From a virus: a stretch of 64,000 bases of DNA. The translations under genes were made by a program, and so were the position numbers. The stretch is taken from the IMG/VR virus record IMGVR_UViG_3300029957_000006, positions 32,001 to 96,000 of that record. The stretch is one strand, 5' to 3'. Under the pieces are notes generated by a model. That model saw only the letters and a program-made list of their open reading frames with translations. It ran no database searches and was not told the origin of the DNA. Shown piece after piece: positions 192-32,866 of this stretch (positions are counted from its first letter, which is position 1; the number at the start of each line of letters is the position of its first letter).

Positions 192-775
192 TTTTGTTTA
201 TGTTTTAAAATAGCAACAGATAATTTCTTATATTCCATACATTTAGGAATGAACCTACTTATTTTTTTCATAAATAATTCACAATCTTTTCTGTTAACTA
301 ATCGTATTGATTTTCTAGATACTCTAAAAATTATTGAGAATTTCTTTTTGAAATAGTTAATGATAAGTTTTCGTTCATTATCCGTAAAACTATCTACAGA
401 TAATGAAATATGACAATTATTTCCATTATAATATACACTACCATCATCTAAATACCAAAGACAAATTCCTTTATTTGTTAATTTATTTAATATTTCTGTG
501 GTAACAATTTTATTCGGTTTATAAAATTTATCATATATTCTTTTTCGTTTACTTAATGGAATTTTAACAACTATTGTTAAATTTGTATAATATTTTTTAG
601 TTCTAATGTCATATCTTTTTCTATTATACTCTCCATATGGATATCCCAATATATTTGCTTTCCACTTGGCATATTCTTTATTTTTTTGAGAAAAAGAAAA
701 CACATAATCTCCTTTTTCATTCTTAAAAATCCAAGAATCACCTAATAATGTTCCATATATAAGTGAATCTTTCAT
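188..775 (-). CDS. free-standing LAGLIDADG homing endonuclease
   Basis: Two LAGLIDADG-like helices: IYGTLLGDS and LWYLDDGS. Confidence 0.8.
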   Translation of the reverse strand: MKDSLIYGTLLGDSWIFKNEKGDYVFSFSQKNKEYAKWKANILGYPYGEYNRKRYDIRTKKYYTNLTIVVKIPLSKRKRIYDKFYKPNKIVTTEILNKLTNKGICLWYLDDGSVYYNGNNCHISLSVDSFTDNERKLIINYFKKKFSIIFRVSRKSIRLVNRKDCELFMKKISRFIPKCMEYKKLSVAILKHKQK

Positions 776-1434
776 AGAACTACTTCTATTATGATTGGTT
801 TATTTTGCATTACATAATTATGATTCAATACACTAGCATTTACAAATGTACCTCCATCTGGAAAATCAACACGTCCATAACCTTCATGTATATGTCCACA
901 TACATGAAGTTTTAAATTAACCAACTCACTTATCTTTTCCAATAAATAAGGACAACCAGTTATATCACCTTGCATAGTCATATCCAAATATCCCTTAACT
1001 GGTCCGTGTGTGATCAATATATTTGTATCCAAAGGAATGAGGTCCCAATGTTTACAAATCGCAGGGCCTACACGATTAAATGCCCAATTATAAAACCAAG
1101 GTTGAACTGGACTTCCCCATATCTTTATTCCATCAATCTCACATCCTGTATCATTAAGATAAATGATATTTGGATATTTAGCTAATAGTGTTTTAATATC
1201 TTCTGGTTTAGCTTGTTCAAAATAAAAATCATGATTACCAGCTATGAGTATTTTATTCTTAAATGGCAAATCATTATACCATCGTAAAAAAGCGACTACT
1301 TCATCAATATATCCACGACCAGTCATATCACCAGAATGGATGATAGTCTCAATACTTCCATCAGTATTTTCCAAATACTTATTTGGTATTTTATTGTGTT
1401 GATTGTGTGTATCACTAATGCAAATTACTTTCAT
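772..1434 (-). CDS. metallophosphoesterase (calcineurin-like)
   Basis: ISDTH, HSGD, IAGNHD, THGP, CGHIH motifs. Confidence 0.9.
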   Translation of the reverse strand: MKVICISDTHNQHNKIPNKYLENTDGSIETIIHSGDMTGRGYIDEVVAFLRWYNDLPFKNKILIAGNHDFYFEQAKPEDIKTLLAKYPNIIYLNDTGCEIDGIKIWGSPVQPWFYNWAFNRVGPAICKHWDLIPLDTNILITHGPVKGYLDMTMQGDITGCPYLLEKISELVNLKLHVCGHIHEGYGRVDFPDGGTFVNASVLNHNYVMQNKPIIIEVVL

Positions 1435-1438
1435 AATC

Positions 1439-1726
1439 TTAATCAATCATTGTTGTATAATTATCCCACGCTTGTTGTGGTGTCATTTTTTTATCATAAT
1501 AAACTTCTTTCCAGAACTCTATCATCCATTTACTATTTAGTGGATACTGATGTGGTGAGAATTTAAAAGCAATCATTTTTAATTCATCCATCCAATTATT
1601 AAATAGATTGAACTTTAATACCACACCTAGTGTTGGTAGTGGAAAGAAATATAGCCATTTGTTTTTTCTATCCCATAAAAATCCAATCCAAATGTCATAC
1701 CAAGCAAATAAAAATTCCAGTTTCAT
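1439..1726 (-). CDS. hypothetical protein
   Basis: ORF tightly packed in operon. Confidence 0.6.
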   Translation of the reverse strand: MKLEFLFAWYDIWIGFLWDRKNKWLYFFPLPTLGVVLKFNLFNNWMDELKMIAFKFSPHQYPLNSKWMIEFWKEVYYDKKMTPQQAWDNYTTMID

Positions 1727-3028
1727 TTATGAGAAATTTTCGCTATGTGTGTAATCAGTTGAATCTGTTGGAGCAGCATCAAATCCACCAAGACTTGCAT
1801 TACCTTGAACTCCAAGATCAAGTGGTGTATCTACTTGTTGTATGGTTTGTTGATCATCATTGTTTAAAGCATCTCCAATCATTGCACCCATCATATTACC
1901 ACCCATCATGGTTCCCATAAGAGTTGAATTAGTTACATAACCCCAAATCAGTGATTCAATGAATGAATCATCACCATTTGGATACTGTTGTTGAAGTTGT
2001 GAACGTTTTTCATAATATGATGAATCCTTTACTCGTTCAGTTTTAACTTCACGATGATTAAAGTAATCTCTTACATAGGTATCATCCTTTGTTATATGTA
2101 AGCCATTTGAATCTCTTTCAGTTATAGTTTTAACTGTTGGTGTGAATTCTTGAACTCGTTTCAAATACTGACGTTTAGCTATGTCACCATGCCAAATATG
2201 ATACAAGTCACCTTTAGCATATCCAATTTTACCTTTTACTACATTATAAAATTGCTTGGACCAAGCATTGATCTCATCCAGATTTTCAGTAAATGATTTT
2301 TGAATGCAAGAATGATCAAAGTGACCAGCAGCTGCATGTGCAATGACATGATCAGCACCACCAACCAAAGCACGATCATACAATGGAACAGCATCTAAAA
2401 CTTCACGTCTTGCACCCCATGCAAATCCGACATGACCATGCTTATCATAATTGGAATTACATGAAAGAATACCATGAGTATCAGCATGATTTGCTGAGAA
2501 GCTTCTCCACATTTTTGGATGTCTTGTTTTTGGATCACTTACATATTCATATTCATGTGTTACATCAAAGTCTGGTTCCATTTGATCTTGATCCAAATGG
2601 ATACAGTATTCAAATGGTTGAACTATGTTGTTTGTCTGTAAGGATTTAACACTATCAACCAACCAATTCTTATTGGTAAAGATGACATCTGCATCAACCC
2701 AGAACACATATTTGTATTTAGGGTCCAATCGTTTAACAATAAGATTCAATAGGGTTTCTTTATGCCAGAGTAAATTTTCTGTTTTTATTGTCGTAATATG
2801 CGGATTCTCAGGCCAATTAGGTAATAATTGTGGTTGAGCACCATCAATCAAGCACTCAATAATCTCATGATTAAGATGCTTGATTGAATCATAAAACTTG
2901 TTGAATGCCTTTAAACGATAAGGATTGTTTTGCGGATTGAAGTAGCAAGAAATGATTATTGCTTCTGAATGCGTTTTGTATTTATTTCCGAATAGGAAAT
3001 TGTTTTTGAAAGCGTCTATAAGTGTCAT
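1727..3028 (-). CDS. glycosyltransferase-like protein (GT-A fold) with low-complexity C-terminus
   Basis: YVFWVDADVIF DxD motif, GGAD, HIWHG. Confidence 0.6.
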   Translation of the reverse strand: MTLIDAFKNNFLFGNKYKTHSEAIIISCYFNPQNNPYRLKAFNKFYDSIKHLNHEIIECLIDGAQPQLLPNWPENPHITTIKTENLLWHKETLLNLIVKRLDPKYKYVFWVDADVIFTNKNWLVDSVKSLQTNNIVQPFEYCIHLDQDQMEPDFDVTHEYEYVSDPKTRHPKMWRSFSANHADTHGILSCNSNYDKHGHVGFAWGARREVLDAVPLYDRALVGGADHVIAHAAAGHFDHSCIQKSFTENLDEINAWSKQFYNVVKGKIGYAKGDLYHIWHGDIAKRQYLKRVQEFTPTVKTITERDSNGLHITKDDTYVRDYFNHREVKTERVKDSSYYEKRSQLQQQYPNGDDSFIESLIWGYVTNSTLMGTMMGGNMMGAMIGDALNNDDQQTIQQVDTPLDLGVQGNASLGGFDAAPTDSTDYTHSENFS

Positions 3029-3080: not shown

Positions 3081-3512
3081 TTAACTATATCCCATCATTT
3101 TTTCTGAAGCTTCAATTACTTTATCATCATACCATTGATTAAAAAGTTTATTCAAAGCTGATTTATGCTTCAATATTTCATCATTTTCCACAATATAATT
3201 AGCTAAAAAATTGGGATTTATTTTTCCATAAACAACATGATTTACACTCCAATTTGTTTGTCCAAGTTGTACACTACATTTAGATAAAAAATCACTAAAA
3301 TTAGCTGCAAAAACTTTAACTCCATTTGCAAACCAATCATCATAAACCTTATTTAAACATGGTAAATGTCCAAATATAATTCTAAGATTAACTTTTAATA
3401 AGTTAAAATCCAATTTTGAATTATAAATAACATCAATGATTATAATATCATCAGCTAATGTGACTTTATAATTTCTGTTTAAAAAGTTACTAACTAATAA
3501 TTCATCACTCAT
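3081..3512 (-). CDS. hypothetical protein
   Basis: ORF in operon. Confidence 0.6.
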   Translation of the reverse strand: MSDELLVSNFLNRNYKVTLADDIIIIDVIYNSKLDFNLLKVNLRIIFGHLPCLNKVYDDWFANGVKVFAANFSDFLSKCSVQLGQTNWSVNHVVYGKINPNFLANYIVENDEILKHKSALNKLFNQWYDDKVIEASEKMMGYS

Positions 3513-3513
3513 C

Positions 3514-5130
3514 TTACTTTTTGTCTTTAGACCATGAATCCTTAAGTGTAACAGTCCGATTGAAAATCAATTTATTTGGACCTGATTCCTTATCAGCACA
3601 GAAATATCCCAAGCGAATAAATTGAAACTTATCACCAGCATTTGCATTAATCAAATCTGGTTCACCATAAGCTGTGTCGATTATCTTTAAACTATTTGGG
3701 TTAATATCTGCAAGTCCTTCTGGTTCTTCTACATTAAATAATCGATCATATAAATTTACTTGCACAGGAATTGCATGCTCAGCACTAACAAAATGAATAG
3801 TACCTTTTGCCTTAATACCACTTACATCATTTCCACTTTTACTATCAGGATAATATGTGCAATGAACTTCTGTTACATTTCCATTATCATCCTTCAAGAA
3901 GGATTCACATTTTACAATATAAGCACTTTTCAATCGTACATTTAATCCAACAGCAAGACGAAAAAAACCTTTGATTGGTTCTTCCATAAAGTCATCTCGT
4001 TCAATCCATAATTCTCGACCAAATGGAATATTTCGTTCTCCACTACCTTCCAATTCTGGATTATTTTCACTAGATAAATTTTCTGTTTTTCCTTCTTCGT
4101 AATTATCAATGATTAACTTCAAAGGATTAACAACAACCATTCTACGTGTAGCAGTTTTGTTTAATTCTTCACGAATACAAAATTCCAAAAGACTCACATC
4201 AATGATATTTTCTCTTCGAGCAACACCAACTAGATCACAGAATTTACGAATGCTATCTGATGTATATCCACGTCTCCTTAACCCACTGATTGTTGGCATA
4301 CGAGGATCATCCCATCCATTAACATGTTTATCATTAACCAATTCAAGTAGTTTACGCTTACTCATTATGGTATAGTTCATATTCAAACGAGCAAACTCAT
4401 ATTGAGTTGATGGATAGATTTCCAGCTTATCAATAAACCAATCATAAAGAGGTCTGTGTGGTTCAAACTCTAGTGTGCAAATTGAATGTGTAATTTTTTC
4501 AATTGAATCACTTTGTCCATGAGCAAAATCATACATTGGATAAATGCACCAACGATCACCTGTACGATAATGATTTATGTGTTTGATTCGATAAAGCAAT
4601 GGATCACGCATTAGCATATTTGGTGATGCCATATCAATTCTAGCTCGGAGAGTTTTTTCACCATCACCAAATTCTCTGTTTTTCATTCGAAAGAACAAGT
4701 CTAAATTTTCTGATATAGTACGATTTCTATATGGAGAATCAATACCAGCACTTGTAGGTGTTCCTTTCATTGCTGCTATTTCTTCAGCACTGGAATCATC
4801 AACATAAGCTAACCCATTAAAAATTAATTTTAATGCGTATCTAAATAAATGATCAAAATAATCACTAGTGTATGTTTCTTTGTTCCATTTAAATCCTAAC
4901 CAAGTAATATCTTCTTTGATACTATTTACATAGGTTAAATCTTCAGTCGTTGGATTTGTATCATCAAAACGAAGATTTGTTTTTCCACCAAATTTTTCAG
5001 CCAAGCCAAAATTAAGTACAATGCTTTTAGCATGTCCTATGTGTAGATAGCCATTTGGTTCTGGTGGAAATCTTGTGATTAATCCTTCACCTATATTTTC
5101 TTCTGTTATGATTTCTTCTAAAAAATTCAT
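3514..5130 (-). CDS. glnS: glutaminyl-tRNA synthetase
   Basis: TRFPPEPNGYLHIGH, RFDDTNP, MSKRKL, WDDPRMPT, FQFIRLGYF. Confidence 0.97.
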   Translation of the reverse strand: MNFLEEIITEENIGEGLITRFPPEPNGYLHIGHAKSIVLNFGLAEKFGGKTNLRFDDTNPTTEDLTYVNSIKEDITWLGFKWNKETYTSDYFDHLFRYALKLIFNGLAYVDDSSAEEIAAMKGTPTSAGIDSPYRNRTISENLDLFFRMKNREFGDGEKTLRARIDMASPNMLMRDPLLYRIKHINHYRTGDRWCIYPMYDFAHGQSDSIEKITHSICTLEFEPHRPLYDWFIDKLEIYPSTQYEFARLNMNYTIMSKRKLLELVNDKHVNGWDDPRMPTISGLRRRGYTSDSIRKFCDLVGVARRENIIDVSLLEFCIREELNKTATRRMVVVNPLKLIIDNYEEGKTENLSSENNPELEGSGERNIPFGRELWIERDDFMEEPIKGFFRLAVGLNVRLKSAYIVKCESFLKDDNGNVTEVHCTYYPDSKSGNDVSGIKAKGTIHFVSAEHAIPVQVNLYDRLFNVEEPEGLADINPNSLKIIDTAYGEPDLINANAGDKFQFIRLGYFCADKESGPNKLIFNRTVTLKDSWSKDKK

Positions 5131-8912: not shown

Positions 8913-9665
8913 TTATTTTAATGTATTTGGGTATTCCATTTTCAGTGCTTCTAATTTTGCAACTAGAATTTTTGCAATCCAAAAATCTCTATACCATTTA
9001 TTATCAGCTGGAACAACATTCCATTTTATCTTTGATTCATTGAAAATTCTCTCGTAGACTTTCATGTAATCATCCCAAAGCTTCGATTCAATCAAGTCAT
9101 TGGCATTATACTTCCATTTCTTCTCAAGTGATGTTGCACGTTCTTTAAATCTAGCTACTTGTTCCTTCTTGGAAATATGGAGATAAAATTTGATAACATG
9201 TGTATTGTTATCTTCAAGCATTTCTTCAAAATTATTGATATGTTTATAACGTTTTTCAATAACTTTCTCTGGGAAGGTTTTATGAACACTAGGATAAAGA
9301 ATATCTTCGTAATGTGATCTATTGAATATTTCAATATTACCCTTTGAAGGCATGAGATTATGAATACGCCATAAGTAATCTTTTGATGCTTCAAAATCAT
9401 TTGGAGCCTTGAATGAATGGACATTTACTGCCATTGGATATAACCCATGATAAAGCTTATCAACTGTACTATCTTTACCAGCTGCATCAACACCTTGTAA
9501 CACAATTAGAATTGAATGTTTAGATTCAGCTCTCATTGTTTTATGAAGTTGTTCCAGCTTGATGTAAAGCTTTGCTGTCTCAGCCTTAATAGTTTCTTTA
9601 TCAAGTGCTTTTGGTGCTTTTGTGGAAATCTTATTTAGCATTTTATAATTTTTTATACCCATCAT
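8913..9665 (-). CDS. ppk2: polyphosphate kinase 2 family protein
   Basis: QGVDAAGKDS P-loop, FNRSHYE, VPADNKWYR. Confidence 0.92.
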   Translation of the reverse strand: MMGIKNYKMLNKISTKAPKALDKETIKAETAKLYIKLEQLHKTMRAESKHSILIVLQGVDAAGKDSTVDKLYHGLYPMAVNVHSFKAPNDFEASKDYLWRIHNLMPSKGNIEIFNRSHYEDILYPSVHKTFPEKVIEKRYKHINNFEEMLEDNNTHVIKFYLHISKKEQVARFKERATSLEKKWKYNANDLIESKLWDDYMKVYERIFNESKIKWNVVPADNKWYRDFWIAKILVAKLEALKMEYPNTLK

Positions 9666-10714: not shown

Positions 10715-11260
10715 TTATTTGCCGTGGTTATCACTTAGTACAAAATTGATTTTAAAATCAGTGAGTCTCCCACTTAGACATTTCTCTTTGCCCCAAGCTT
10801 CAAACACTGGGATATGTTCTAAACGATCATCCCACATTTCAACACTAGTAACTGATTGATGTTCGTCCAATAGCTTGTTAAGTGTTTTAACCTTAGCTAT
10901 TTCAGTTGCACCACCTTTGTTAAAATGATGACCATCAAAGGTCAAGCCTTTAATTTCAAGGATATCCCTAACATGATCAGCCAAGTGTTGTAGACGACCA
11001 GTCAACATAATAACACCTGTTTCAGGTAATGCTCGTTCTTTCTCGTAATCTGCAATGACAAGTGGATTGGATGGCATATCAAAGATTCTATGATCAAGTG
11101 ATTCCTCTCGACCCCACCAACCTTTATGTGGCCATTCTTTGCCAGTCTTTTTCTGAAAGTGCAGCTTTCCCGTCTCAGGCAATGGTGTATTAATAAGCGT
11201 TCCATCAAAGTCGAAGATGGCCAATTTAGTTATTTTTCTTGTATTTCCAAAGGTATCCAT
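10715..11260 (-). CDS. HAD-family phosphatase (RNA-repair-like HAD)
   Basis: FDFDGTL, MLTGR, K, WDDR motifs I-IV. Confidence 0.85.
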   Translation of the reverse strand: MDTFGNTRKITKLAIFDFDGTLINTPLPETGKLHFQKKTGKEWPHKGWWGREESLDHRIFDMPSNPLVIADYEKERALPETGVIMLTGRLQHLADHVRDILEIKGLTFDGHHFNKGGATEIAKVKTLNKLLDEHQSVTSVEMWDDRLEHIPVFEAWGKEKCLSGRLTDFKINFVLSDNHGK

Positions 11261-11918
11261 AAGCTGTTTTTGATTTTTTTGTTAAATTCATACTAATATT
11301 TTTTCTAGAAAAACCTAATTCTTCCTCCACATCTTTAGCACTTTTCCATTCTTTAATTTGTTCACCATCTAAATTATATTGAATTATGGGTTTTTTAATA
11401 CTTTCAGCGTTATTACTAATCCAAATTTCATTTTTTATTATTTTTCTTCCTTTAGATTTTTCACAAGCTAATTTATGTGCTGATGTGCTACCTGTTTTTT
11501 TTCTAGTTTCTGAAATTAATTTTTTTGTTTCTTCAGTGTGTTTTTTATAAACCTTTGTTTTATTATAAGCTATTATTTTCTTACGATGTTCATCACTTAT
11601 TTTTCTACCAAATCCACCATCACCACCTAAAGTTAAATTAATACCATTTTCATTACTCCCATGAAATGAATTGAAAAATCCAATATAAAAAATTTCTAAC
11701 TCATTTAATTCGATTAATGTATTTTCGCCTTCATATATTATTTCAAATGTATGACCACTAAAACCATGCTTTGATAATGAATTAAATAAAAGTGGTTGTT
11801 TTTTACATTTTAATCGTCTATAATAATCAATCCTAAGAGTTAAGTTAGTTGTTTTTCCAATATAAATTCGACCAGTTGGTGATGTTATTTTGTAAATGTA
11901 TCCATATTTCTTTTCCAT
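11226..11918 (-). CDS. GIY-YIG homing endonuclease with NUMOD3/NUMOD1-like C-terminus
   Basis: GYIYKITSPTGRIYIGKT, NLTLGGDG, KHTEETKKLISE, QYNLDGEQIKEW; likely start ATG 11918. Confidence 0.9.
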   Translation of the reverse strand: MEKKYGYIYKITSPTGRIYIGKTTNLTLRIDYYRRLKCKKQPLLFNSLSKHGFSGHTFEIIYEGENTLIELNELEIFYIGFFNSFHGSNENGINLTLGGDGGFGRKISDEHRKKIIAYNKTKVYKKHTEETKKLISETRKKTGSTSAHKLACEKSKGRKIIKNEIWISNNAESIKKPIIQYNLDGEQIKEWKSAKDVEEELGFSRKNISMNLTKKSKTAYGYLWKYKKNN

Positions 11919-11956
11919 AAACGAGTTTATTATAAATATCTCGTTTTTTATCAAAA

Positions 11957-12010
11957 TCAAAATAATGTGCCATCAAAATCAAATATCGCTAGTTTTGTAA
12001 AGGTTGTCAT
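11957..12010 (-). pseudogene. orphaned original 5' end of the HAD gene (MTTFTKLAIFDFDGTLF*)
   Basis: 12 aa identical to HAD motif I at 11195-11230; ATGA-coupled to upstream gene stop. Confidence 0.85.
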
Positions 12011-12333
12011 TTTATATGTAATTTTTTTAATATTCTTTGCATTAATGTTAATGGTGGTGGTTCCAATAAAGAACCATATATACGCTTTGTTGCACTTCCT
12101 ATGAGGATTTTAGTTATTGGACCATGAGCATTTATTGCATTCTTTAATGCACCATTAATCTTTGTTGTTGTTACTACTTTTATCTTTTTTAACTGTTCAA
12201 TGGTAGCTAAATTATCTTTCTCATATTCATCAACAAACATCAGTATTGCTTCAATATCAGTTGAACTAACCTTATTTTTTAAAGCTTGTTCCAGTTTATT
12301 TTGTAATTTGCCACGTCTTGTTTTAAATTTCAT
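12007..12333 (-). CDS. hypothetical basic protein
   Basis: ORF with ATG 6 nt after promoter box at 12340-12347. Confidence 0.65.
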   Translation of the reverse strand: MKFKTRRGKLQNKLEQALKNKVSSTDIEAILMFVDEYEKDNLATIEQLKKIKVVTTTKINGALKNAINAHGPITKILIGSATKRIYGSLLEPPPLTLMQRILKKLHIK

Positions 12334-12374
12334 CTTTGACAAAGGTAGTGATTTATTTTCATTTTTCCAAATTT

Positions 12375-12872
12375 TTAATATAAACGATTAAACCAAGATT
12401 GTCTTGATCTTTCTTCATTTATTTGATGTATTTCTCGTTGAATTCTGTCTTCCTGTTCCTCATGTAATCTTCTGATCATGTCATTTCTATTTGGTGAAGG
12501 ATTTCCAGAATATATATAATCCATGTAAACAAGTTGACCTGTTGGACCATCCATTGGTTGAACTGAAATTAAATCATTTGAAAATGTATTAGGAACAAAA
12601 TTTGAAATTAATGGAAAAAAGGCTTCAATGGTTTTCCAATAAAATTCAAGATCGATATCTCCTTTTATCCAAACAGCCCAATCATTTATTATTTTCTTGA
12701 CGATTTCAGCATCAAGAAAAAATATTATAGAAAGTTCATTAACTAATCTTTCTGCATATATTGGTGCTTTATGTCTTCTGGTATCACTTAATTCATAGAT
12801 ACCATCATTTCCTATGTCACTAATTCCAACATAGTAGTGTCTGGTGAGGTATGATCGTACAAGGTTTTCCAT
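12375..12872 (-). CDS. hypothetical protein with short major-capsid-like motif
   Basis: DLISVQPMDGPTGQLVYMDY resembles gp23 VQPMxGPTG motif. Confidence 0.55.
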   Translation of the reverse strand: MENLVRSYLTRHYYVGISDIGNDGIYELSDTRRHKAPIYAERLVNELSIIFFLDAEIVKKIINDWAVWIKGDIDLEFYWKTIEAFFPLISNFVPNTFSNDLISVQPMDGPTGQLVYMDYIYSGNPSPNRNDMIRRLHEEQEDRIQREIHQINEERSRQSWFNRLY

Positions 12873-12908
12873 GTACAATCATAGCGATTTTCAATAAATA
12901 TGTAAAGT

Positions 12909-13403
12909 TTATTTGTTACTTTTAGGCTTAAGAGTAACAAACATTTTTTTACCTTCCATTGAAGGCATTGCTTCTGGAACACCATACTCTTCTACTGATA
13001 CGATAACCTTTAATAAAAGAGCTTTACCATTATCAATATAAGACATTTCACGTCCTTTGAATTGCATGCTAATCTTTACCTTATGACCTTTTTGAAGGAA
13101 TTCTATCATGTGTTTGAGACGATAACTCAAATCATTTTCAGAAGTATTTGGACCAAGTTTTATCTCTTTCATTTCAAGAGTTTTATTCTTTGGCTTTTTA
13201 CCCAATTCATAAATGAATTTTTCATAATTCATAATCTTACAAACTGGTGGTACAGAATGTTCATTGATTAAAACCAAATCCATTTCTTTTGATTCAGCTA
13301 ATGCAATTGCAGAATCCAAGGACATGATTCCACCTTCTGTTACTCGTACTTCATTTGCTCTGATTTCTCTATTAAGCAAATGTTGTTTTTTCTTTTTGTT
13401 CAT
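12909..13403 (-). CDS. infC: translation initiation factor IF-3
   Basis: NREIRANEVRV, DLVLI..PPVCKIMNY, KEIKL, KVKISMQFKGRE. Confidence 0.95.
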   Translation of the reverse strand: MNKKKKQHLLNREIRANEVRVTEGGIMSLDSAIALAESKEMDLVLINEHSVPPVCKIMNYEKFIYELGKKPKNKTLEMKEIKLGPNTSENDLSYRLKHMIEFLQKGHKVKISMQFKGREMSYIDNGKALLLKVIVSVEEYGVPEAMPSMEGKKMFVTLKPKSNK

Positions 13404-13877
13404 TTATTTCACTTTGTTTTTTAAGTATTCAACTAATTCATCGTAAGTCTTAACTTGATCAACACCATATTTCTTACAAACGATATCAACGTTTCCTTTT
13501 CTCCAAAATCCTTCTGGACAAAGAACAACCATCTTTTTAGTTCTAGCATATAATCCTAATTCCAATAATGAAATAGGTGATTCGGTTTCTGGATCAAAAT
13601 ACATAACAACAATGTCACACATTTCAAGTCCATCCAATTCCCATGTTACTTGTCCATTAAAGTTTTTGTCTGTGATCTTTTGTTTCCAGCTAGAATCCCA
13701 ATCTTTTCGTCTTGGATTTAAGAAAACAAATGGTTTACTCTGCAATTCTTTTATTATTTTTTTCTGCCAGTTTTCAGCTAGGCCCATTTCAATGGAACCA
13801 GCTAGGAATACAGATGTGAATCCTTTTTCTACTTTCACCTCATTAGGTGGTTGTATTTCTATTGCTTTACTCATCAA
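13404..13877 (-). CDS. nucleoside 2-deoxyribosyltransferase-like protein
   Basis: VFLAGSI, NPRR, QVTWE, SPISLLELG. Confidence 0.85.
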   Translation of the reverse strand: MMSKAIEIQPPNEVKVEKGFTSVFLAGSIEMGLAENWQKKIIKELQSKPFVFLNPRRKDWDSSWKQKITDKNFNGQVTWELDGLEMCDIVVMYFDPETESPISLLELGLYARTKKMVVLCPEGFWRKGNVDIVCKKYGVDQVKTYDELVEYLKNKVK

Positions 13878-16383: not shown

Positions 16384-16550
16384 TCTTCAAAAGATTAATT
16401 TGTTTTGTGTTTTTGACAATTTGATTTTGAATTGTTTTATCTGTAACAATTACAGGTTTTCCCCCCATTTTAGAAACACGTATTTTTGCCAATAAATTAT
16501 TACTAGCTTCTAATTGTGATTTTAAAGACTTTAAGTCTTGTGTTCTTACT

Positions 16551-31933: not shown

Positions 31934-32236
31934 ATTTATGCAATTCTAATTAAGTCCAACAATAAAGTGGTTATGTAATTTACAGCTTTTGATGTTCCCA
32001 AGTGATTCAAAACAAGAAATAAGCATTGAATTAAATTCACGTCCTTCAAGTGTCTCTATTCTGAGCATTGTTGGGTCATCAAATGGTTGCCATTCAGGTC
32101 GTTTTTTCTTTTTTATTCGTTTCATTTTTATAATTATCAAAGAATCTAAATTATTTTACCCAAGCTAAGTCTTTTTCACATCTAACAGATATTTATATAC
32201 AAAGAAACTAAATAAATCTGAATAAAACAACTAATA

Positions 32237-32866
32237 ATGAATATTTTAATCTACAAGCTAATTGATCCAAGGACAAATGAAATTAGATATGTTGGAAAAA
32301 CTAAAAAATCTTTAACCAAAAGATTATATGAACATTTAACTAAACGTAATTTAACACCAAAAACCCATAAAAATCATTGGATTAAACAATTATTAAACGA
32401 AAAACTTAAACCTAAAATTGAATTGATTGAAATTACTGATCAAAACAATTGGATTGAAAGAGAAATCTTTCATATTAAAAAATTGCGAAGTGAAGGTACT
32501 TACTTGACTAACTTAACTGATGGTGGTGATGGTGCATTAGGTAGTAAACAAAGCAAAGAATCAATACAGAAAAGAATTGACACAATAAAGGAAAGATATG
32601 GTAATTTAGCTTTTAAACTATCTGATGAAACCAAAAATAATATAAGAATAGCTCATTTAGGTAAAAAACAATCACAAGAACGAAAAGATAAAACTAGCAT
32701 AAACTTACGAAAAACTCTATTCCAATATGATTTAAATAATAATTTAATTAAGGAATGGCATGGAGTTAGAAAGTGTGCTAAAACTCTTAATATAGATTAC
32801 ACAACACTAAGAGTTTATATTAAATCCCAAAAACCATTAAATGGTTTTATTTGGAAATATCAATAA
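32237..32866 (+). CDS. GIY-YIG homing endonuclease with NUMOD domains
   Basis: ATG AAT ATT TTA at 32237 and TAA at 32864-32866 read on the PLUS strand (ORF track labels it minus); IYKL..YVGKT, NLTDGGDG, QYDLNNNLIKEW. Confidence 0.9.
   Translation: MNILIYKLIDPRTNEIRYVGKTKKSLTKRLYEHLTKRNLTPKTHKNHWIKQLLNEKLKPKIELIEITDQNNWIEREIFHIKKLRSEGTYLTNLTDGGDGALGSKQSKESIQKRIDTIKERYGNLAFKLSDETKNNIRIAHLGKKQSQERKDKTSINLRKTLFQYDLNNNLIKEWHGVRKCAKTLNIDYTTLRVYIKSQKPLNGFIWKYQ

Follow-up and report, generated by a model that had tools for sequence, protein, structure and literature searches.

A GIY-YIG homing endonuclease gene and a replacement gene start at motif I of a phage HAD phosphatase gene: a probable non-splicing homing cassette

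The window analysed here, 64,000 nucleotides in length, covers positions 32,001 to 96,000 of the IMG/VR virus record IMGVR_UViG_3300029957_000006, a record of 124 kb judged to be ~35% complete. It contains a HAD-family phosphatase gene whose first codons are present twice, with a GIY-YIG homing endonuclease gene (HEG) placed between the two copies. Every feature of this locus, including the short remnant open reading frame (ORF), the HEG and the HAD gene, is carried by the minus strand (Table 1). The ATG of the remnant overlaps the TGA of the upstream 111-aa gene, and its final two codons, TTT TGA, come from a box that forms the left end of the inserted element. The remnant stop and the ATG of the HEG are separated by ~40 nt. 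The ATG of the HAD gene is located 35 nt inside the end of the endonuclease ORF and is read in a different frame, and the HAD gene then repeats the motif I sequence TKLAIFDFDGTL at 11195-11230.

Table 1. Features of the HAD/endonuclease locus, listed in the direction of transcription (positions of the window).
Feature	Position	Strand	Remark
Upstream 111-aa gene (left flank)	12007-12342	-	ORF; no Pfam or PHROG match
Remnant ORF, 17 aa, MTTFTKLAIFDFDGTLF then stop; putative displaced original HAD 5' end	11957-12010	-	ATG at 12010
Left-end box TTTTGATTTTGA	11951-11962	-	resembles the putative FDFD-coding target; conserved in all related elements
Predicted hairpin, arms AAACGAG / CTCGTTT, loop ATATTTATAATAA (11927-11939)	11919-11946	-	ends at the endonuclease ATG
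GIY-YIG homing endonuclease gene, 230 aa	11226-11918	-	Pfam GIY-YIG; PHROG 314
Putative replacement head: ATG in the endonuclease tail, MDTFGNTRKI, then TKLAIFDFDGTL	11195-11260	-	AYGY codons of the endonuclease read in another frame
Functional HAD-family phosphatase gene (host gene), 181 aa	10715-11260	-	PF10307; PHROG 415

A first-pass annotation made from the letters alone had already described the 17-aa ORF, the GIY-YIG gene, the restart of the HAD gene in the endonuclease tail and the repeated TKLAIFDFDGTL, and we confirm each of these features. The two 36-nt copies agree in 12/12 residues and in 25/36 nt; the 11 differing nucleotides fall into 9/12 codons, and all of them are silent. As bare DNA the repeat, 32 nt at 75% identity, is unremarkable and only one among 35 families with two copies in 3 kb; what gives it significance is that all 12 residues agree in frame at a catalytic motif and that relatives show it again. 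Both junctions are crossed without differences by contigs of two other sequencing runs (X16 records 2 and 3; X17 records 6 and 7), indicating that the arrangement is not specific to one assembly. In contigs of four sequencing runs, which were of low depth and left parts of the locus uncovered, no joint skipping the HEG was observed.

The endonuclease matches the Pfam family GIY-YIG (PF01541) with 24.9 bits at a cut-off of 22.6 and PHROG 314, annotated as 'homing endonuclease', with an E value of 9e-28. The modules NUMOD1 (19.6 bits, cut-off 22.8) and NUMOD3 (17.1 bits, cut-off 20.4) remained below the Pfam thresholds in the window protein. The family members contain GIY-YIG in 15/15 and, at E <= 0.01, NUMOD1 in 12/15 and NUMOD3 in 9/15 cases. 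Residues Y9, Y19, G21, R29, E75 and N89 are invariant in the 15-sequence HEG alignment A5, and we take them to be the equivalents of the I-TevI catalytic-core residues, that is the Tyr residues of GIY and YIG, Arg, Glu and Asn. The HAD gene product matches PF10307 (HAD_SAK_1) with 35.7 bits at a cut-off of 25.6 and holds all columns that are invariant in the HAD alignment A3 (D7, D9, T11, T77, G78, R79, K113 and D135), of which those downstream of motif I presumably represent HAD motifs II-IV. A sequence search of the PDB with the endonuclease yielded only T4 endonuclease II, over ~40 residues, and the corresponding search with the HAD profile gave no match. When 3 kb of the locus were compared with the annotated phage collection at the nucleotide level, zero matches were obtained. 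The endonuclease protein found 50 records in annotated phages, all below 60% identity; among the matches listed, identities were 29-33%, with crAss-like and Bacillus phages at the top. These searches of annotated phages gave no cultured relative. In 185,579 prokaryote genomes scanned with the endonuclease only seven distant GIY-YIG genes (28-41% identity) were detected. For the HAD protein, deposited phages offer only distant kin, all of it from uncultured huge phages with 30-39% identity.

Introns and inteins typically reside where this insertion does, in the codons of a conserved catalytic motif, and this position would be in keeping with a group I or group II intron, an intein or translational bypassing that joins the 17-aa ORF to the HAD body. 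However, none of the Rfam intron families was matched in the 4 kb between 9500 and 13500 at E <= 10, nor was any present among the 11 sub-threshold matches. Likewise, no group I/II ribozyme core was found, the non-coding space being limited to the ~40 nt between the remnant stop and the endonuclease ATG, and the HEG overlaps the HAD gene. An intein is ruled out, as the remnant is followed by a stop, the HEG is read in another frame than the HAD gene and the HEG is bounded by stops. Finally, joining would be unnecessary because the replacement head duplicates all that the remnant encodes. We consequently assign splicing or bypassing next to no probability. These results bear out the first-pass statement that neither intron nor intein is visible, and they favour its proposal that the insertion is harmless without splicing due to a carried gene start, since the head keeps every motif I residue.

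Relatives of the locus were collected by searches of virus and metagenome contigs with the HAD protein and with the HEG, whereby duplicate and near-identical contigs were merged, and a lineage was counted as related if its HEG shares at least 53% identity with that of the window (n=17; lineages are labelled L). The order remnant, box TTTTGATTTYGA, hairpin, HEG and new gene start is present in 15/17 lineages, and was read in the window, in L001, L003 and L024/25 and in further lineages. A clear DxD-bearing remnant, ending in ..[F/W]D[F/L]Dx(T).., was detected in 14 of the 17 lineages; the remnant of L042 is frameshifted, and two lineages, L039 and L040/57, contain the box only. In L040, this box is directly preceded by codons for MKRN, in agreement with how the downstream gene begins. 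A gene beginning with DxDxT is located downstream of the HEG in 16 lineages, the 17th, L041, being cut. An overprinted start as in the window was read from the sequences in 9/11 lineages. Across lineages, the head and the remnant have 7-12 of 12 residues in common and are 58-81% identical at the nucleotide level. By comparison, the HEG directly follows the motif I codons in 15/17 lineages, in line with the first-pass view that the element targets DxD-coding DNA.

The targeted genes are mostly HADs of the PF10307 type, and those of L036, L054 and L039/L040 are other gene types that have only the DxDxT start in common. Two of the four genes of L014, L036, L040 and L054 were scanned, those of L014 and L040, and neither gave a Pfam match; hhalign aligned them with the HAD profile only over 14-18 residues around motif I (14 in L040), so that a HAD fold of these two is not demonstrable by Pfam or hhalign. 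L014 encodes a much more distant GIY-YIG protein (238 aa) within the same layout at 298-1505 (+): the remnant MIFAIDFDG (9 aa, followed by a stop) precedes the endonuclease, and the head MSGNSNKTITVAVDFDGT of another DxDxT gene is overprinted on the endonuclease tail. An uninterrupted ortholog of this target gene is present in L003 at 1851-2354 (+). The layout in L014 suggests that the same strategy is used in a second endonuclease clade. The distant HEG matches L026-L030 were left out of the architecture reading, and in the vicinity of the HEG matches L058-L065 (29-48% identity, some partial) there is no motif I. In L049 and L056, the HAD gene (3141-3362, +) ends after ~55 matching residues, just past GWWG, and its remainder was not found in the 1.7 kb downstream; here, the host gene is broken and the cassette persists.

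As a test set for loci without the endonuclease we used the best 80 of 402 HAD relatives in IMG/VR. Eight of these carry the HEG (seven with a remnant, one cut), 71 lack the HEG and have no second motif I within 1.3 kb upstream, and one more is cut. The box was found in 0/56 loci without the HEG. Thus, the duplication, which the first-pass annotation had tied to the endonuclease, does not occur without it in these loci. The refuting condition set along with that annotation, relatives that have the duplication and lack an endonuclease, did not materialise in any of the 71 loci. A different GIY-YIG gene (263 aa) is located in L100 at 1612-2403 (+) between the same two genes, where it represents a classical intergenic insertion without duplication.

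We analysed four sister pairs with and without the HEG in five comparisons, in which the L024 lineage is represented by L114 and the L031 lineage by L109, and scored how many of the 24 nt preceding the second Asp codon deviate from the empty allele. The remnant differs at 1/24 and the functional head at 7/24 positions for L068 (the L001 contig) and L067 (the L002 contig); the respective values are 1/24 and 9/24 for L037 and L070, 2/24 and 10/24 for L114 and L126, 3/24 and 10/24 for L114 and L122, and 3/24 and 7/24 for L109 and L103. The flanks of the sister pairs are 87-93% identical. As the remnant is near the empty allele and the head far from it, the comparison indicates that the remnant is native, that is the recipient's own former gene start, and that the head is foreign and arrived with the element. 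This origin of the remnant, and its probable role as left homology arm, go beyond what the first-pass annotation had recognised.

The transition between native and foreign sequence can be followed in two of the pairs. L001 and L002 are 100% identical over 1229 nt upstream, show eight differences in the 26-nt head before the second Asp codon, and from this codon on only two differences in ~120 nt. For L037 and L070, 17 differences in 45 nt are followed by two in 150 nt, and the foreign tract reaches three codons beyond GTL. Hence, the right end of the imported tract varies between pairs, as in co-conversion tracts. In addition, the similarity of remnants follows that of the HAD bodies (Spearman 0.49, p 0.002, 36 pairs, relatedness ignored). 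The remnants decay: four of them have S, A, N or K in place of the near-invariant Gly of motif I, and the Leu or the ATG is missing from several, which argues against a function of the peptide. L002, the HEG-free sister of L001, carries a 73-aa ORF without family match at 4787-5008 (+) that has the same first four codons (MDKI) as the L001 remnant, and its HAD gene restarts at an ATG within the tail of this ORF, which looks like another insertion at the HAD start that supplied a new start codon.

The distribution of the HEG was then considered in relation to the history of the host gene. In a 66-row tree of HAD bodies, from which L015-L021 (GC-rich and distant) and rows without a complete HAD body (e.g. 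L034 and L049) were left out, the HEG is patchy and occurs at one site among related genomes; the 10 HEG-carrying rows need eight state changes, with a mean of 9.5 after shuffling. HEG identities show no correspondence with those of the HADs (rho -0.20, 36 pairs), and approximately unbiased (AU) tests, performed for groups that were chosen after the trees had been seen, reject congruence of HEG and HAD in both directions (p 1.7e-9 and 2.2e-33). The window HEG is closest to those of L024/25 (75%) and L031 (~71%), whose HAD bodies are only 42% identical to that of the window and whose upstream genes differ. A homolog of the 111-aa gene lies directly upstream of HAD in 10/21 loci tested, and it is absent from the L024, L031 and L050 lineages, the HEGs of which are among the closest to that of the window. 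By comparison, these data indicate that the endonuclease moved between HAD lineages. As the upstream genes differ, the HAD head is the only homologous sequence left of the insertion, and this is the best reason to assign the role of left homology arm to the remnant, or at the minimum to the box; we consider this role of the remnant probable.

Alternatively, a single old illegitimate insertion with duplication could have been inherited vertically and lost many times, the endonuclease being immobile. On unrooted trees, the patchiness could indeed reflect losses by recombination between the direct repeats. The conflicting histories of HEG and HAD given above argue against such an ancient relic, as do the remnants, which are near-identical to the empty alleles of sisters with flanks of lower identity. 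Moreover, related HEGs precede unrelated genes with only motif I in common, and the columns of the catalytic domain are invariant in 15/15 members. We regard this explanation as very improbable.

If the element cleaves motif I DNA, the gene that it leaves behind should differ from the target. The string TTYGATTTTGAY is present in 8/11 remnants and 21/54 empty alleles and in only 1/11 heads. Correspondingly, the first Asp codon is GAC in 10/11 heads, 2/11 remnants and 18/54 empty alleles (Fisher, heads vs empty alleles 6e-4, heads vs remnants 2e-3, uncorrected for relatedness), and in four heads TTT is replaced by CTA (Leu). The idea that CTA marks one HEG subfamily found no support, since it occurs in at least two HEG clades. 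The head in the window uses the rare codons GCC, GAC and ACG, and the 11 differences between its two copies exceed those of two independent draws from the synonymous codon usage of the genome (mean 7.0, sd 1.9; P(>=11) = 0.03). The first-pass description of the head as synonymously recoded therefore stands for the window; it does not extend to the other lineages with their partly different residues, and most of the divergence of the heads is what a foreign donor allele would bring.

Taken together, there is circumstantial support for a replacement copy that resists cleavage, as had been proposed in the first-pass annotation. The pattern fits, without amounting to proof, an enzyme that needs the FDFD-coding string as well as sequence downstream of the insertion point; the remnants would then lack the downstream half of the target, and the heads would have a changed upstream half. 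The element could, on the other hand, be mobile and the head a mere by-product of where repair synthesis ended, diverged only because the donor had diverged, with immunity coming from elsewhere, for example from a target that spans the insertion point or is located at another place. The divergence of head and remnant is within the range for distant HAD alleles, GAC is also found in empty alleles and remnants, and head similarity does not follow HEG similarity, all of which this incidental duplication would accommodate. However, the head restores a continuous junction from motif I to the downstream sequence, so that the target would be rebuilt unless the sequence differs. The depletion of TTYGATTTTGAY in the heads and the excess of differences between the window copies likewise speak against it, and we consider an incidental duplication unlikely.

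Two further features are located upstream of the endonuclease. In alignment A4 (13 lineages), 9/12 positions of the box are invariant, although the enzymes are only 60-75% identical, which suggests that the box is under constraint. With one mismatch allowed it occurs eight times in the window vs 4.3 expected, and the match at 16419 is outside any HAD gene. A hairpin formed by the 30-40 nt that precede the endonuclease ATG is predicted in 13/13 lineages of the main family, with -5.8 to -21.2 kcal/mol; of the mononucleotide shuffles, no more than 3.3% reach a fold of equal quality. The stems covary around the conserved loop ATATTTATAATAA, with at least five different sequences, and in L001, L003, L037 and L031 the ATG is inside the 3' arm of the hairpin. 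The loop motif is not enriched in the window (two matches vs 1.56 expected) and is not a general promoter motif of the phage.

Comparable features are known from phage T4: according to a review (PMC2988022), I-TevI represses its own promoter via an operator that resembles its homing site, and the start regions of I-TevI, segB and mobE are masked by hairpins up to the time of late transcription. By analogy, hairpin and box would restrain expression of the endonuclease. The box may act as an operator or as a minimal homology arm, it may be the relic of a motif that was invaded earlier, for which L040 provides a hint, or it may be all three. A conserved target-like box upstream of the endonuclease gene would also fit a domesticated nuclease or regulator, a GIY-YIG protein that serves the phage by excluding co-infecting relatives or by repressing the HAD operon via the box, and there is a report of an intron endonuclease that helps a phage to compete (PMC11620839). 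Its patchy occurrence in close relatives together with horizontal transfer is a better fit to a selfish element than to a fixed host function, even though domesticated and selfish roles are not mutually exclusive. We judge domestication to be quite improbable.

We therefore favour, with a probability of roughly 0.85, a mobile non-splicing homing cassette that entered the HAD coding sequence directly after motif I (DxDGTL), brought a replacement 5' end and left the recipient's 5' end in place as left homology arm. From 5' to 3', the mobile unit would consist of the box TTTTGATTTYGA, the hairpin at or around the start codon, the GIY-YIG gene and the replacement gene head, the latter comprising a start codon, usually overprinted on the last codons of the HEG, and the diverged first 12-25 HAD codons including motif I. 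The enzyme would cut endonuclease-free alleles in or beside the FDFD-coding DNA, and the break would be repaired from the occupied allele, the left end pairing with the donor remnant, minimally its box, and the right end with the HAD body. Repair would copy the endonuclease and the new head, and the old head of the recipient would remain as the new remnant. The rebuilt gene would escape re-cutting through the altered sequence of its head, in which GAC takes the place of GAT at the first Asp and, in some cases, CTA that of TTT, and hairpin and box would hold back endonuclease expression as in T4.

A wider reading goes beyond this mechanism. The cassette may belong to a natural class of phage 'home-and-rescue' drives, a third route beside introns and inteins, in which GIY-YIG enzymes recognise DNA coding for the HAD catalytic motif, jump between unrelated DxDxT genes and carry a recoded, uncuttable head, the box TTTTGATTTYGA being a fossil of the first invaded motif that now serves as minimal left arm and autorepression operator. 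We hold this wider reading tentatively, at somewhat less than even odds.

Several points weigh against the proposed cassette or soften its individual parts. The similarity of the 36-nt heads does not follow that of the HEGs (rho -0.04), so that co-variation of the 36-nt head with the HEG found no support; the notion that the head travels with the HEG thus rests on the sister pairs, and conversion tracts with differing ends would blur such a correlation. The window itself is without a close HEG-free sister, the nearest, L066, being 65% identical in the HAD body. Because the trees are unrooted, gains are indistinguishable from losses by repeat-mediated deletion. To this the post hoc choice of the AU groups has to be added, as well as the fact that the Fisher and Spearman tests ignore relatedness. 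As to resistance, the heads with CTA do not form one HEG clade, and GAC cannot be the only determinant of immunity, as it pre-exists in empty alleles and remnants. The cut site, the true HAD start codon and the immunity of the head are deduced from sequence. RNAalifold applied to a MAFFT alignment gave no consensus hairpin and zero pairs, because MAFFT places the stems out of register; hence, each sequence was folded alone. Lastly, the host gene is broken in two lineages, by truncation in L049/56 and by a frameshift in L042, indicating that the rescue is not maintained in every case.

The closest known systems are eukaryotic. In WHO elements of Torulaspora and Lachancea yeasts, an endonuclease gene lies between FBA1 and an FBA1 fragment; this fragment, once the 3' end of the recipient's gene, provides a homology arm, and a resistant 3' end is delivered with the element (Coughlan et al. 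2020, eLife, PMC7282813). The phage element resembles WHO in homing without splicing, in a fragment that represents the former gene end and would act as second homology arm, and in the carried replacement end; in both, the host gene is chimeric, divergence changes sharply and the trees are discordant. Resistance is attributed to allelic sequence differences for WHO (PMC7282813), and the same would apply to the phage element. However, WHO replaces the 3' end of FBA1, whereas the phage element replaces the 5' end and hence has to provide a start codon as well. The WHO protein derives from an intein and carries a zinc finger. WHO elements reside in a yeast nuclear genome in meiosis and form tandem clusters, none of which were seen for the phage element, and their cleavage and allele specificity were shown experimentally, whereas the phage element is known from sequence. 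Membership of the phage enzyme, a GIY-YIG protein with NUMOD modules, in the WHO protein family by homology is ruled out, so that the likeness concerns the mechanism only.

Similarly, mORFs of fungal mitochondria bring a foreign carboxy-terminal duplicate into atp6, atp9, cox2 or nad3, with atp6 of Allomyces macrogynus and atp6, atp9, cox2 and nad3 of Glomus as examples (Beaudet et al. 2013, PMC3630166). They have in common with the phage element an endonuclease ORF in a coding gene, a foreign duplicate of the displaced end and a native fragment that is closer to relatives than the inserted copy; one case (atp9) also involves a GIY-YIG enzyme. They differ in that they are mitochondrial and mostly LAGLIDADG, and that the 3' end is duplicated, often as an in-frame fusion, whereas the phage element duplicates the 5' end and has as its target a catalytic motif common to a whole superfamily. 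Judged from the sequences, the phage element is the 5'-end mirror image of the 3'-end replacement by WHO and mORFs.

Among phages, the 'intronless homing' of the T4 seg and mob genes likewise employs GIY-YIG enzymes outside introns and inteins, double-strand-break repair, co-conversion of flanks and control of translation by hairpins. However, these genes are located between genes and cleave hundreds or thousands of bp from the insertion point, and the review, in which the word stem 'duplicat' is absent, describes no duplication (PMC2988022), whereas the phage element is inside coding sequence and would depend on its duplicated head. I-TevI is similar in having a target-like sequence just upstream of its ORF and a hairpin at or around the start codon, and differs in being intron-encoded (PMC2988022); the roles of box and hairpin in the phage element are read from sequence alone. 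A search of the full-text literature, with subscription-only papers and supplements outside its reach, retrieved no phage case of an endonuclease with a duplicated gene start. In the Aeh1 nrdA/mobE arrangement and in genes fractured by split inteins, the host protein is reportedly made as two pieces that reassemble. Both resemble the phage element in that the endonuclease gene is in a phage coding region without an intron (PMC3045599, PMC2677866), and differ from it as the phage element has one complete downstream protein and a redundant upstream piece.

The reading proposed here would have several implications. A homing endonuclease could occupy the most conserved part of a phage gene without ribozyme or protein splicing, since an element whose target is within a few codons of the gene start needs only to provide a new one. 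The class of end-replacing homing elements represented by WHO and mORFs would then comprise phages in addition to eukaryotes and 5' in addition to 3' ends, and it would be extended to GIY-YIG enzymes. In synthetic 'cleave-and-rescue' and 'home-and-rescue' drives, engineered in insects with Cas9, a nuclease cuts the wild-type allele and a linked, recoded and uncuttable copy provides the rescue. The phage element would follow the same logic as a natural counterpart of these recoded-rescue gene drives that is protein-guided and 'rescues' only the first few codons. With respect to annotation, such cassettes would explain orphan mini-ORFs and odd N-terminal extensions in phage genomes, and they caution that, in such genes, the history of the first codons is not that of the remaining sequence. 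Moreover, they would provide a family of natural enzymes with probable recognition of DxDxT-coding DNA.

Besides the element, the window contains a second GIY-YIG gene at 32237-32866 (+), which encodes a protein of 209 aa (PHROG 314) that is 34% identical to the first. It stands alone between genes of the opposite strand, has no duplicated gene end and is of the classical free-standing type. Two genes upstream of the cassette, a 167-aa ORF at 12375-12878 (-) has a match to the Gp23 major capsid profile (PF07068, 28.7 bits at a cut-off of 24.4; PHROG 138) that is confined to the first ~45 profile positions, and a similar, longer ORF is present in L049 (1352-1996). The neighbourhood further encodes a PPK2 polyphosphate kinase (8913-9665), a full translation initiation factor IF-3 (12909-13403) and a nucleoside 2-deoxyribosyltransferase-like protein (13404-13877), all on the minus strand, an unusual cargo that fits a very large phage. 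Finally, TAnnTTTG-like strings were noted in L014 (~283-299), just upstream of the remnant, and in L031 (~3205-3215), upstream of the stand-alone replacement HAD start; they resemble what we take to be the -7 promoter element of Bacteroidota and may hint at the phylum of the host.

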